From Escherichia coli (GTDB taxonomy: Bacteria > Pseudomonadota > Gammaproteobacteria > Enterobacterales > Enterobacteriaceae): a stretch of DNA of 64,000 nucleotides. The stretch lies in the NCBI RefSeq assembly GCF_051903065.1, contig NZ_CP178438.1. One strand, 5' to 3'. Positions 690 through 53,800 of the stretch are shown piece after piece. The first letter of the stretch is position 1. Each line of letters opens with the position of its first letter. A program made the translations under genes and the position numbers. The notes under the pieces were generated by a model. It made no database searches. It was not told the origin of the DNA and worked only from the letters and a program-made list of their open reading frames with translations.

Positions 690-2095
690 AGGGATAATGA
701 GATGGACGCTCCAGATTTTACGGTATCAAAGTACCAGACTGGATCGTTGCAATACGTCCTGAAAAATTAGGAGCGTCCACATGAAAGTATCAACTCTTGG
801 TATCGACCTGGCAAAGAACGTTTTTCAGCTTCATGGTGTCGATCATGAAGGCCATACTATTTTGCGTAAAAAGCTCACCCGGGCTAAGTTTGTTCAGTTT
901 GTGATTCAACTGGAACCTTGTCTGATTGGCATGGAAGCCTGCTCATCCAGTCATTATTTTGCGCGATTATTCACCCGCTATGGTCATGAGGTAAAACTCA
1001 TACCTCCGCAGTATGTGAAGCCTTATGTGAAAACGAACAAGACGGATGCAGCAGATGCTGAAGCAATCTGCGAAGCGGTAACCCGTCCGAATATGCGTTT
1101 TGTTCAGATAAAAAACGAAGAGCAGCAGGCCGTTTTAGCGTTACACACTGAACGGGGAATACTTATCCGTGAGCGGATTGCCTGTGCCAATAGTTTAAGA
1201 GCCACACTTGCTGAGTTTGGTATTACGATTGCGGCCGGACAAAGCCATTTAACCCGTGAGCTGCCAGCCATTCTGGAGGATAGCGAAAATGGTTTATCTC
1301 CCTTTGTCAGAACCAGCATCTACAGACAGTCTAAACATATCCGGGAACTTGAAGAACAAGTTAAACAGGTAGAAGAAGCTCTGGCCTCCTGGTATAGAAC
1401 GCAGGAAGCCTGCCAGAGAATGGCCAAAATCCCGGGGGTTGGCATGCTAACGGCCACTTATGTGGTAGCAGCAGTGGGTAATGCCCGACAATTCAGTACC
1501 GCAAAGCAGTTCGCTTCATGGCTGGGGCTGACACCAAAGGAACATTCCAGCGGCGGGAAACAGCAACTGGGAGGGATCAGCAAACGTGGAGATGGATATT
1601 TCCGATACCTGCTGGTTCACGGCGCACGCGCACTTACCGCCTGGGTCAACCGAAACGGCGCGGTTGAGGAGAATTCCTGGCTTCAGGGACTCCTTGAGCG
1701 GAAGCACTACAATGTAGCTGTTGTCGCCATGGCGGCAAAAACAGCGAGGATCATGTGGTCAATGTTGTCACACAATACTGAATATCAACCTCGGCAGCTC
1801 GCCTGACACAAGGTCAGTCAATCTGACGAGGTGCTGAAAAAAAGTTAACGTCCTGGTAGGTGCAGGTGACTTCAGAAGATGGCAAAACAGGTAAGACCGC
1901 AGGCAGGATACACCGAGAGGTAACAAGGGCAAGTTAGCCCGTAGAGGATGATTGGTACCTGCCTGGCGGATTTCATCATGGTTCGGGATAAAAATCCCAT
2001 CAGAAACCGGATATATGGCTGCACCTACCCGTTTTATTACATAACTGAAGAAAGCATTGCATTCCGGGAGCGTCCATATATGTTACCTCGTGCCC
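690..2095 (+). mobile_element. IS110/IS1111-family insertion sequence (boundaries approximate)
   Basis: Single transposase ORF with short 5' and ~280 bp 3' non-coding regions. A 10-bp motif GGAGCGTCCA occurs at 770-779 and 2067-2076, with its inverse TGGACGCTCC at 703-712. A REP element lies immediately to the right. Exact termini cannot be fixed without an empty-site comparison. Confidence 0.5.
781..1806 (+). CDS. IS110-family (IS1111-group-like) DEDD transposase, 341 aa
   Basis: SD AGGAG (769-773) 7 nt before the ATG. N-terminal LGIDLAKN...D and C-terminal IPGVG...LGISKRG motifs are typical of IS110/IS1111 transposases; overall resemblance to IS4321/IS5075-type proteins is from memory. Confidence 0.8.
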   Translation: MKVSTLGIDLAKNVFQLHGVDHEGHTILRKKLTRAKFVQFVIQLEPCLIGMEACSSSHYFARLFTRYGHEVKLIPPQYVKPYVKTNKTDAADAEAICEAVTRPNMRFVQIKNEEQQAVLALHTERGILIRERIACANSLRATLAEFGITIAAGQSHLTRELPAILEDSENGLSPFVRTSIYRQSKHIRELEEQVKQVEEALASWYRTQEACQRMAKIPGVGMLTATYVVAAVGNARQFSTAKQFASWLGLTPKEHSSGGKQQLGGISKRGDGYFRYLLVHGARALTAWVNRNGAVEENSWLQGLLERKHYNVAVVAMAAKTARIMWSMLSHNTEYQPRQLA

Positions 2096-2354: not shown

Positions 2355-4208
2355 CTACATCTTCTCCAGCAACTTCTTCACATCTTTGCCATTGCGGGAA
2401 TCTTTATTCCGCTCGGCCCAGTCATTCAGGCGACGTTTCGCTTCGTCCTGTAGATGTTTGCGCAGCAGCTGGTCCACTTGCAGGCTGTAATTGAGTTGCT
2501 GCCAGTTGCCATAAACCCGCAGCGGTACTGGCGTTTCTTTGAGGAAATCAATCAGTTTACTTTCCCCGTTCCAGCCACCCACGACCCGAATATCAAACTG
2601 GGTGTCGCAGGTTTGATCTGCCAGATTCAACATGCCTTCCCCTGTCAACGCCAGCACAGGCGATTGACCTTGCATGTCGTTTAACGTCACGACGCCATCC
2701 TTCAACGTCAAATCGGTGGTAAAGCGGTCAAGACGCGTTACGTTATCGAAGTTTTCAGCGGCCTTCACATCACCACCATTACGTTCTACCGCTTGCTGAA
2801 TCATCTGCTGGAAGTTCATCCCTTGCATGCGCGTATCGGCCATTTCGACATGCGCCGTCCCCTGCCAGTTGTGGCGGAATGCGTCGGCATCTATGTCAGC
2901 ACCGGAGAAATCACCAGCCAGTGACATCTTTCCGGTCAACGAAATCGGATAGTTAAACGCCTTCAGAATGGTGCCAATCTCAACGTTTTCCAGCCGTGGC
3001 TGAAAGTTTATCCGCGGATTTATTGATGTCGCGTCCAGCGTGCCCGGCAGTGAAACCTGTCCACCGTTAAGTTTGCCCTGCAGTTGAGTAATTTCCAGCA
3101 AACCCGACTTGTTGGTCATTTGCGTGGCAACATCTGTAAAATTCATTCCGCGCCAGCGCACGTTACTGGCCTGCAACAAAATATCAGCCGTAAAGCCTTG
3201 CAGTCCCTGATAGGCCGGTTCATCAATACGCGAAGAAATAACCGGGCGCGGCAACGTTGATTGGCTCTGCCCCTGCTGCGCGGCACCGTTTTCACCATTC
3301 GCGGTTTCATTAAGCGGGATGAGGTTGTCAAGATTCAGTTGCGGGAATTGCAGTCTCAGCTGCCATTCCGGTTTCTCTGTCAGCGTGACCTGTGCTTGCC
3401 CGCTCAGCGTACTATCATTGGCGGTCAAACTAATTTGGTTAAATGAAAGGCGTTTATGTGACTCCTGCCACTGGGCCAGGAAACTCCCCTGCCCCTGAAT
3501 ACCTTGTTTTGGTAAATCGGCACCCTGCAACTGCCAGTTAATTTGTTCAATAGCCGCCGTTAAATCATGCGGATAATCAGAAGCATCTACCGTACCGTTA
3601 AGGGATATCGTGAGATCGCGCTGATCGCGATTAACCCGCCCGGAGAACTCAAATGAGCCACGATGTTGGGGATCTTGTTCCATTTGCAGGCGGATATTGC
3701 GGATTGTCACCTGCTCGTCATCTTCATGCTGGAACACCAGAACGCTGTCCGCCACCTTAAGACTGGATATATCAAACGACCATCCGCGATCGTCTGACAG
3801 ATCCGGCAAGGTATTGTCGCGCGGTGCAACCGGAGCGTCTTCACTGCGCACCGCTTCCGTCTGCGGCGTCAGTTGGATCACTGCCCCTTTTAGCATCACC
3901 TGCTTAACGCTCAGTTGATGACTCAGTAGTGGTAAAAGCGCCACGTCCAGACGCATGTTATCGGCGCGAACCAGTGGCTGGCTTGCGCCCTGGGCGGTGA
4001 GAGACATTCGCCCGGAGAGGATACTAAGCTGCGGCCAGACGTGCCAACGCAGTGGCCCGTCGAGCTGCAATTGATAACCGCTACGTGCAGCAACTTGCTT
4101 GACCATATAGTCGCGGAAATCATTCGGATTCACCAGCAACACTAACGCAGATAACCCGGCCACCAGCACGACCAGGAGTATCATCAGCGTCGTCAGAAAT
4201 CGTCTCAT
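2355..4208 (-). CDS. asmA: Outer-membrane assembly protein AsmA, 617 aa
   Basis: 617-aa ORF with N-terminal signal-anchor; recognised as AsmA by sequence and by position before dcd-udk. Confidence 0.9.
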   Translation of the reverse strand: MRRFLTTLMILLVVLVAGLSALVLLVNPNDFRDYMVKQVAARSGYQLQLDGPLRWHVWPQLSILSGRMSLTAQGASQPLVRADNMRLDVALLPLLSHQLSVKQVMLKGAVIQLTPQTEAVRSEDAPVAPRDNTLPDLSDDRGWSFDISSLKVADSVLVFQHEDDEQVTIRNIRLQMEQDPQHRGSFEFSGRVNRDQRDLTISLNGTVDASDYPHDLTAAIEQINWQLQGADLPKQGIQGQGSFLAQWQESHKRLSFNQISLTANDSTLSGQAQVTLTEKPEWQLRLQFPQLNLDNLIPLNETANGENGAAQQGQSQSTLPRPVISSRIDEPAYQGLQGFTADILLQASNVRWRGMNFTDVATQMTNKSGLLEITQLQGKLNGGQVSLPGTLDATSINPRINFQPRLENVEIGTILKAFNYPISLTGKMSLAGDFSGADIDADAFRHNWQGTAHVEMADTRMQGMNFQQMIQQAVERNGGDVKAAENFDNVTRLDRFTTDLTLKDGVVTLNDMQGQSPVLALTGEGMLNLADQTCDTQFDIRVVGGWNGESKLIDFLKETPVPLRVYGNWQQLNYSLQVDQLLRKHLQDEAKRRLNDWAERNKDSRNGKDVKKLLEKM

Positions 4209-14989: not shown

Positions 14990-15170
14990 AAGAAATCATT
15001 TCTTAGAGAATTATTGAGGTCCGGTATCATACCGACTGCAATAATGAAATAAGAGCAAACGAAGAAACTTTCAGAATTAGTCCCGGCGGCGCAGAAAATT
15101 TTGCTATTCGCCTCGCAAGAACGGAGAGCCGTCGATTGACACTAAGGGCGGAGTGACATAATTTCAGGAG

Positions 15171-15310
15171 TGAGGGTTAGGGAAAGGTTTCCCCCTCCCC
15201 CTGGTGTTCTTAGTAAGCCTGGAAGCTAATCACTAAGAGTATCACCAGTATGATGACGTGCTTCATCATAACCCTTTCCTTATTTAAGGCCCCTTCCTCG
15301 GGAGGGGCTT
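15171..15310 (+). ncRNA. sibA: SibA antitoxin sRNA, antisense to ibsA (ends approximate)
   Basis: Sigma70 promoter TTGACA (15136-15141), 17-nt spacer, TAATTT (15159-15164). Transcript fully overlaps ibsA on the opposite strand and ends at a GC hairpin plus T-rich tract near 15285-15310. Confidence 0.6.
15210..15269 (-). CDS. ibsA: Type I toxin IbsA, 19-aa hydrophobic peptide MMKHVIILVILLVISFQAY
   Basis: Hand-translated minus-strand ORF; too short for the ORF track. Matches the Ibs toxin family. Confidence 0.75.
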   Translation of the reverse strand: MMKHVIILVILLVISFQAY

Positions 15311-15504
15311 TCCCGTTTCAGCATCCCGCTGAAATCGTCGGCTTACCTCCTTTCGCCATGCATGCAGTCTATCGCTGACTTGCGGATAAAATAGTTTCCA
15401 GTGTGATTATTGCGTAACGTCTCGCAAAGAATATTTGCTGGCAGGATCGCAGACTGCAAAGCCTGCAGATTGACAATCTGACCGTGAAGGCATACTTTCA
15501 GGAG

Positions 15505-15640
15505 TGAGGGTTGAGCGGGGTTTCCCCCGCCCTGGTAGTCTTAGTAAGCTGGCCAGCTAATGACTAAGAGCACCACGATGATGAGTAGCTTCATCATGAC
15601 CCTTTTCTTATTAAAGGATGACAAAATAATACAAATCACT
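15505..15640 (+). ncRNA. sibB: SibB antitoxin sRNA, antisense to ibsB (ends approximate)
   Basis: Second copy of the Sib repeat. Promoter TTGACA (15470-15475), 17-nt spacer, TACTTT (15493-15498). Overlaps ibsB. Confidence 0.55.
15541..15597 (-). CDS. ibsB: Type I toxin IbsB, 18-aa hydrophobic peptide MMKLLIIVVLLVISWPAY
   Basis: Hand-translated minus-strand ORF in the second Sib/Ibs repeat unit. Confidence 0.75.
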   Translation of the reverse strand: MMKLLIIVVLLVISWPAY

Positions 15641-35888: not shown

Positions 35889-35924
35889 CATACAGCTGCA
35901 TTTATTAAGGTTATCATCCGTTTC

Positions 35925-36011
35925 GCTGAAAAACATAACCCATAAAATGCTAGCTGTACCAGGAACCACCTCCTTAGCCTGTGTAATCTCCCTTACACGG
36001 GCTTATTTTTT
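35925..36011 (+). ncRNA. cyaR: CyaR (RyeE) Hfq-dependent sRNA, ~87 nt
   Basis: GCTGAAAAACATAACCCATAAAATGCTAGCTGTACCAGGAACCACCTCCTTAGCCTGTGTAATCTCCCTTACACGGGCTTATTTTTT matches CyaR as I recall it, including the terminator hairpin and U-tail. Confidence 0.85.
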
Positions 36012-53661: not shown

Positions 53662-53800
53662 AGTTTGCTCCTGCCATAACGTGAAGAAGCAATGACCTGG
53701 TGGTCCGTGACTTCCCTACGCTGGCATTATCCAGATCAGGTGATACGGGTATTTCTCAGCCTTCACGCAGAAGGGCACCCCGAGTCGTTTGGTTGCGATG
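53662..53800 (-). promoter_or_regulatory. TPP (thi-box) riboswitch in the thiM leader
   Basis: Minus-strand sequence ...GGGGTGCCCTTCTGCGTGAAGGCTGAGAAATACCCGTATCACCTGATCTGGATAATGCCAGCGTAGGGAAGTCACGGACCACCAGGTCATTGC... matches the thiM TPP aptamer as I recall it. Confidence 0.85.

Follow-up and report, generated by a model that had tools for sequence, protein, structure and literature searches.

Insertion sequences commonly keep their transposase low by hiding the ribosome-binding site of its gene, and the mechanism is a classical one. In IS10 and IS50, sequence in or close to the left repeat pairs with the transposase ribosome-binding site so that read-through transcripts translate poorly, and transcription from the promoter of the element itself begins past the 5' arm (fold-back inhibition). 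In IS200, a stem-loop in the 5' untranslated region (5'-UTR) of tnpA suppresses transposase expression (PMC4513863), and in ISPpu9, of the IS110 group, a 5'-UTR structure blocks translation of the transposase gene tnp (PMC8450116; see also PMC12288879). The IS1111 group is defined by a subterminal-repeat architecture (PMC11187229; PMC11208160), with repeats of approximately 11-13 bp and asymmetric extensions of 7 or 6 bp on the left and 3 bp on the right (PMC11187229). Recombinases of the IS110/IS1111 type are under development as programmable RNA-guided tools for genome editing, and little has been described of how their expression is naturally controlled. Here we analyze a 64,000-nt stretch of Escherichia coli DNA (contig NZ_CP178438.1 of assembly GCF_051903065.1; hereafter the window) that carries a complete IS1111-group element, and show that its left subterminal repeat and the ribosome-binding site of tnp can form the closing helix of a conserved three-helix leader, which probably attenuates translation of the transposase.

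The element has the features of the IS1111 group: DEDD and IS110-type domains, subterminal repeats and a long downstream non-coding region with guide segments. With ISEc11, IS4321/IS5075, ISYen1 and ISEch3 it shares a DEDD transposase, subterminal repeats of 11-13 bp whose extensions are asymmetric, a long guide-RNA-encoding region downstream of tnp and, by prediction here, a junction promoter (PMC11187229), and with IS5075 also the same pairing of left repeat and Shine-Dalgarno sequence. Like ISPpu9, a member of the same family, it has a tnp 5'-UTR structure that would obstruct translation (PMC8450116), but in the ISPpu9 system, which includes the small RNAs Asr9/Ssr9, the 5'-UTR is long, subterminal repeats are absent and the structure is opened by an antisense RNA, whereas the leader here is short, is built from the subterminal repeat and has no evident antisense RNA. 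The transposase of IS200 belongs to an unrelated family; here, unlike in IS200, it is the recombination repeat that would act as the occluding arm. Fold and covariation indicate that, as in IS10 and IS50, the Shine-Dalgarno sequence is paired with an inverted repeat of the leader; in contrast to them, the predicted transcription start lies at the edge of the arm, so that most of the arm is kept, and the stem encloses two conserved hairpins. The parts of the element that bear on the leader are as follows.

696-2081, plus strand: complete IS1111-group (IS110 family) insertion sequence of 1386 bp, with ends mapped against the empty site.
702-712, plus strand: left subterminal inverted repeat (IRL), ATGGACGCTCC, which forms a perfect 11-nt inverted repeat together with 2067-2077 and lies 6-7 nt from the left end, the placing known from IS1111 elements (PMC11187229).
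2067-2077, plus strand: right subterminal inverted repeat (IRR), GGAGCGTCCAT, the perfect 11-nt partner of 702-712, lying 4 nt from the right end.
781-1806, plus strand: tnp, the transposase/recombinase gene (341 aa), identified by Pfam domains.
703-719, plus strand: 5' arm of the outer helix, with 10 bp and, after one mismatched nucleotide, 6 bp more.
763-779, plus strand: 3' arm of the outer helix, which holds AGGAG, from the fold, complementarity and covariation with IRL.
722-735, plus strand: leader hairpin 1, GGUAU-CAAA-GUACC, family consensus ACGGCAUC..GUGCCAAAG, from the minimum-free-energy fold.
741-759, plus strand: leader hairpin 2, variable in sequence with its pairing kept, from the fold.

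The 10-mer TGGACGCTCC at 703-712 has its exact reverse complement, GGAGCGTCCA, at both 770-779 and 2067-2076. Across both strands of the window the exact 10-mer occurs three times, compared with 0.05 +/- 0.26 times in dinucleotide shuffles, of which 0/100 reached three; one mismatch admits one extra match, elsewhere in the window. These counts, together with the conservation across relatives described below, rule out a chance origin of the repeat and its pairing. The copy at 770-779, hereafter the third copy, overlaps the Shine-Dalgarno sequence AGGAG (769-773) and ends 1 nt 5' of the ATG at 781, and 770-782 is identical to 2067-2079 at 12 of 13 positions. The initial annotation of this locus had placed the 10-mer copies, AGGAG and ATG at these positions, all of which are correct on re-reading the sequence, and its guess that the 10-mer serves as a subterminal recombination signal is borne out by 702-712 and 2067-2077, which are the subterminal repeats of an element with mapped ends.

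The two arms, 703-719 and 763-779, are 17 nt long and 88% complementary, and the inner 6 bp (714-719 with 763-768) have no counterpart beside IRR. Folding of 690-800 gives -32 kcal/mol (z = -2.94), with the stem present in both the minimum-free-energy and the centroid structure, and for the leader alone (702-783, to the ATG) the folding energy is -30.2 kcal/mol (z = -5.23). The 10-bp stem that was proposed to bury the Shine-Dalgarno sequence, with folding of the 690-790 region as its suggested check, is thus real, although it is not a simple stem-loop: together with two conserved hairpins that lie inside it, it makes up a conserved leader of three helices and approximately 85 nt, of which it is the outer helix. 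Reading the stem as an intrinsic terminator was rejected, as there is no terminator-like site there and no U-run after it. In Rfam 15, 694-783 has no match, either in a search of 400-2500 at E <= 1 or in one of the whole window at the gathering score; the only matches in 400-2500 at E <= 1 were a REP-type naRNA4 at 2259-2331 and a chance microRNA match. No description of a leader structure in IS1111 elements was found in the literature that could be searched.

The pairing is conserved among homologous elements, which the initial annotation had named as a test of its hairpin. Relatives came from a genome scan (80 loci, 45-54% transposase identity), from an exact-protein look-up (54-88%; ISYen1, ISEch3 and elements of Serratia, Jejubacter, Citrobacter and Salmonella) and from named plasmid elements, for example IS5075, IS5708 and IS1618. 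Nearly all have the left repeat 75-88 nt 5' of the ATG, and most have IRR 225-420 nt after the stop codon. The third copy keeps a constant distance to the ATG, 1-3 nt before the start codon, and the sequence directly 5' of the ATG complements the left repeat and varies with it. Left repeats GGACGC, GGTCGCC, GGACGGC, GGACTCC and TGGCTCC are accompanied at the ribosome site by the copies GCGTCC, GGCGACC, GCCGTCC, GGAGTCC and GGAGCCA, respectively. Where the third copy differs from IRR, the differences are mainly G-to-A and create GGAG or GAGG.

In a plain MAFFT alignment of 52 distinct leaders (45-100% transposase identity), 85.9% of outer-helix cells are paired and five of the ten pairs have changed on both sides (AU<->UA 11 times, GC<->UA 7, CG<->GC 6, and CG<->UA 9 and 8), values matched by 0/500 shuffles; slid controls are 29-47% paired. 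A covariance-model alignment of 84 distinct leaders, which leans towards structure as it was fitted to the three-helix model, has 85% of cells paired, compensatory changes at 14 of 20 pairs and 158 cells with both partners altered (shuffles, 48.5 +/- 5.4). Hairpin 1 is paired in 94% of cells in the plain and 92% in the fitted alignment, with compensatory changes and with its sequence conserved too, and hairpin 2 in 72% and 80%, with all five pairs compensatory in the fitted alignment. When relatives are folded singly, 72 of 76 distinct leaders have at least 5 pairs between IRL and the Shine-Dalgarno region in their own minimum-free-energy fold (median z -3.7), and IS5075, at 40% protein identity, and a Klebsiella element have the same fold. 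Taken over the 52-84 distinct relatives compared (40-100% transposase identity), 84-86% of cells retain pairing between IRL and the Shine-Dalgarno region, and five to six of the ten positions have compensatory changes. At the closing position, 24 sequences have U-A and 20 have U-G; U-G is a wobble tolerated in RNA and would be a mismatch to IRR, so this alternation favours an RNA helix. The three-helix covariance model matches leaders only, on the sense strand, and its match in the 64-kb window is 694-783 only. It defines an alignable RNA motif of three helices and approximately 85-92 nt that is absent from Rfam and marks the left end and the orientation of such elements in genome annotation.

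On this evidence the pairing of 703-712 with 770-779 is probably the closing helix of a structured tnp 5' leader that attenuates translation of the transposase. IRL would have two roles, as a DNA recombination signal together with IRR and as an RNA anti-Shine-Dalgarno arm, whose C-rich inner half (GCUCC here) would pair with the third copy and the Shine-Dalgarno sequence that it contains. In any transcript bearing the repeat, the ribosome-binding site would be held in a helix around two hairpins and translation of tnp would be attenuated. Transcripts reading in from the upstream gene yegH would certainly be covered, and the element's own circle-junction mRNA, with a predicted 5' end at the edge of the arm, would probably also be attenuated, at least in part. 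The modelled cost of opening -16..+3 has a family median of 11.6 kcal/mol with the arm, compared with 6.5-6.9 kcal/mol for transcripts starting 8-12 nt into the repeat, and in the window it is 13.0-15.5 kcal/mol with and 6.8-7.2 kcal/mol without the arm. The arm would therefore add approximately 5 kcal/mol of occlusion (6-8 kcal/mol in the window). An ISEc11 mini-element that retains only 50 bp at its left end can still transpose, and ISEc11 accepts cargo inserted after bp 50 (PMC11187229). Sequence past bp 50, which in the present family includes the third copy, hence appears dispensable in cis for recombination. If the leader does act in this way, hiding of the Shine-Dalgarno sequence would explain why basal transposase output is low in the IS1111 group, and the subterminal repeat would be under a dual DNA and RNA constraint, which would be relevant when ends are re-engineered or tnp is expressed from native leaders.

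Several points weigh against attenuation by this leader. RNAalifold on the plain alignment returned hairpin 1 only, which we attribute to poor alignment of its middle part; pairs were therefore counted on named structures and on the covariance-model alignment. IRL, the third copy and IRR all covary together, and a DNA-level specificity common to them, instead of RNA pairing, could account for part of this covariation; cases in which IRL and IRR differ are too few to tell which of them the third copy follows, and counts of G.U versus A.C as a discriminator of RNA and DNA are confounded, because the Shine-Dalgarno sequence needs A opposite the C-run of the repeat. C.A mismatches occupy 30/104 cells at two Shine-Dalgarno positions, so that the Shine-Dalgarno adenine is often unpaired. 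A few relatives are without the pairing or have it beside the Shine-Dalgarno sequence (L028, L043, L048, L089; L044/L045/L058). The conservation of hairpins 1 and 2 goes further than simple occlusion would require, and the leader may have an additional function. The cis requirement of ISEc11 is carried to this leader by analogy. Formation of the structure in vivo, lowered translation and the position of the transcription start are inferences.

Which transcripts would be affected depends on the promoter formed when the ends of the element are joined, of the kind known for the IS1111/IS110 family (PMC11187229).

2057-2062, plus strand: -35 hexamer of the predicted junction promoter, TTGCAT, from end joining and geometry in relatives.
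2079-2081 and 696-698, plus strand: halves of the predicted junction -10 hexamer, TAT and AAT, from direct reading of the sequence.

Joining 2057-2081 to 696-705 gives TTGCAT, 16 nt and TAT/AAT, a near-consensus sigma-70 promoter by sequence prediction. This geometry is kept in 60 distinct relatives, with a -10 of TATAAT in 24 and TACAAT in 12, a -35 of TTGGCA or TTGCAA and a spacer of 16-18 nt. What looks like a shared core of one base is present in 52 of the 60, where the nucleotide preceding the left end is identical to the fourth nucleotide past the right repeat. With the customary 7-nt spacing from the -10, transcription is predicted to start at approximately G705, which would retain 8 of 10 arm bases and the 6-bp extension. 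For starts at 704, 706 and 710 the opening cost in the window is 15.5, 9.9 and 6.8 kcal/mol and the family median 11.7, 8.7 and 6.9 kcal/mol, so occlusion is predicted to persist at starts 704-705 and to drop sharply from 706. Because the opening cost is so steep here, any selectivity for read-through transcripts would rest on 1-3 nt of start position.

These numbers bear on a classical fold-back of the IS10/IS50 type, in which only transcripts from outside are blocked and the junction mRNA escapes by starting inside or beyond the 5' arm. The conserved junction promoter with a predicted start within IRL speaks for it, as does the steep fall in opening cost when the start is moved 1-3 nt further in, and insertion in one orientation into transcribed intergenic repeats means that read-through should be common. 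However, a start at G705 leaves most of the arm and its extension in place, and the family-wide geometry puts the arm at the 5' end of the mRNA, not upstream of the start. We therefore consider restriction to outside transcripts unlikely, although it keeps some weight; the suggestion that the hairpin blocks translation from read-through transcripts is supported as regards the stem that buries the Shine-Dalgarno sequence, and confinement of the block to such transcripts is the less likely reading.

A weak promoter-like sequence (TTGCCA, 17 nt, GATACT) also runs on the minus strand from 814 to 786, antisense into the leader, and could yield an antisense RNA like those of IS10, IS200 and ISPpu9. 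The region has 2 such sites versus 1.8 expected in shuffles, which is no excess over chance, and part of the sequence is fixed by conserved DLAK codons.

It is very improbable, in our estimate, that the three repeats make up an RNA switch linking production of the transposase to the element's state. In the default, off state IRL would pair with the Shine-Dalgarno copy. IRR, a perfect complement, would capture IRL in circle-junction transcripts or in a long 3' guide-RNA precursor and so free the ribosome site; alternatively, the recombinase would free it by binding the three-way junction. Hairpins 1 and 2 would serve as the recognition platform.

Only a slight chance is given to a leader that serves mainly mRNA stability, as a 5'-terminal helix against 5'-end-dependent decay, or riboregulation, as a three-way junction opened in trans by the recombinase or by an IRR-containing RNA that competes for IRL. 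5'-terminal stems do stabilise E. coli mRNAs, for example in the ompA leader, and here the start of the helix coincides with the predicted 5' end of the mRNA. The sequence and structure of hairpin 1 and the structure of hairpin 2 are conserved to a degree that exceeds what occlusion needs, and IRR complements IRL better than the third copy does. On the other hand, the interior of the leader has no segment matching the flanks of the element, and the guide RNA tested in ISEc11 excludes IRR (PMC11187229). Such roles are also compatible with occlusion of the Shine-Dalgarno sequence and do not exclude it. Equally slight is the chance that 770-779 acts in DNA, as a third recombinase site for autoregulation or synapsis or as an alternative 'right end' with an incidental Shine-Dalgarno overlap: the 12/13 identity of 770-782 with 2067-2079 and the joint covariation of the three copies, as if one protein or RNA specificity read them all, would fit, but several observations speak against it. 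The likeness to IRR ends where the pairing with IRL ends, and the terminal bases, which a guide RNA would be expected to read, differ (CCAC/CCGA versus CCAT-RTA). The third copy stands at an invariable distance from the ATG, and in the clade of the window the helix runs on for 6 bp past the repeat, an extension that the IRR flank is without. Covariation within hairpins 1 and 2 points to single-stranded RNA and not to duplex DNA, and ISEc11 needs only 50 bp of its left end in cis (PMC11187229).

The guide RNA itself maps, by sequence and fold, to the other end of the element.

1807-2066, plus strand: putative guide (seekRNA/bridge) RNA non-coding region, from complements to flank and terminus, fold and relatives.

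This region folds with z = -3.24, with a predicted closing stem of 1855-1865 and 2019-2029; it contains two complementary segments, GAGGTAACA (1917-1925) for the right flank and ATATATGG (2011-2018) for the right terminus. In relatives, a segment complementary to the respective right flank is found at a constant place, of at least 7 nt in 27/53, approximately 105-120 nt after the stop codon, followed by a same-sense copy of the left flank approximately 125-160 nt after the stop. The same order of segments is reported for IS1111 seekRNAs, with the complement of the target top strand first and then the match to its bottom-strand partner. The left-flank match of the window copy is imperfect (ACAAGGG versus ACAGGGAT), and it is exact for the flank of the lysO-yohP copy, ACAAGGAT. 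The interior of the leader matches the flanks at background level only, with a mean longest match of approximately 4 nt and matches of at least 7 nt in at most 2/53 per flank and orientation. The hairpin was accordingly rejected as part of a guide RNA, given that a right-end slice of equal length has complements of at least 7 nt in 27/53. A guide RNA at the right end is as expected for IS1111 elements.

The product of tnp matches the Pfam domains DEDD_Tnp_IS110 (PF01548, 2.1e-15) and Transposase_20 (PF02371, 1.1e-24). In an identical E. coli copy, NCBI labels it 'IS110 family RNA-guided transposase', and the PGAP start is also ATG 781. Its amino-acid identity is 69% to ISYen1, 65% to ISEch3 and 40% to IS5075, and by these values the element is a distinct IS1111-group member. 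The non-coding sequence around tnp is 275 nt long downstream versus 85 nt upstream. The element lies in the yegH-asmA spacer, with yegH reaching to 518 and asmA at 2355-4208 on the minus strand, and the empty site in another E. coli strain reads ...cagggAT/gttactcg.... Both junctions share a 2-nt AT (694-695 and 2080-2081), which makes the ends ambiguous by 2 nt; according to the side to which this AT is counted, the left terminal extension measures 6-8 nt and the right one 2-4 nt, with 7 and 3 allowed. The same 1386 bp (at least 99% identity) are found in 179/5426 complete E. coli genomes, at several loci and in 1-4 copies each, and as regards the biology of E. coli it is an ordinary insertion sequence of low copy number.

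The target of the insertion is a repeated intergenic element (560-695 and 2082-2280 in the window), of which an uninterrupted copy is found at L001 321-463. Compared with the Rfam TwoAYGGAY RNA (RF01731), the uninterrupted target scores 31.7 bits (E = 0.0073), under the gathering score of 43. The insertion sequence sits directly 3' of GGGAT in the second AYGGAY-type loop of the target, and the same target element is used at lysO-yohP, at ybaP-copA and at another yegH site. A left flank ending in (A/G/T)GGAT also occurs in the Serratia, Yersinia, Dickeya and Jejubacter relatives, and the core of the element's own repeat, ATGGAC, is itself an AYGGAY word. The sub-threshold naRNA4 match at 2259-2331 is a REP-type sequence 3' of the target element. 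Elsewhere in the window, Rfam matches at the gathering score are ordinary E. coli features, namely two Sib RNAs, CyaR and a TPP riboswitch (15136-15284, 15470-15612, 35923-36008 and 53696-53792).

Some relatives differ in their setting or arrangement. Two of them (L091 1-521 and L092 1-552, at 60% and 54% identity, from a metagenome contig and Salmonella) lie directly downstream of a group II intron reverse-transcriptase gene (RVT_1, GIIM), which suggests that some members target group II introns. In L044, L058 and L066, inverted repeats of 56-60 nt, where 12 nt is usual, join the left region (approximately 85 nt before the ATG) with sequence approximately 275 nt after the stop, in the region past the right repeat; the cause may be a palindromic target or nested copies. 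In L057, two tandem leader motifs with equal scores (1317-1408 and 1412-1503) precede one tnp, with N in the adjoining assembly, and may be an assembly artefact or a duplicated left end.

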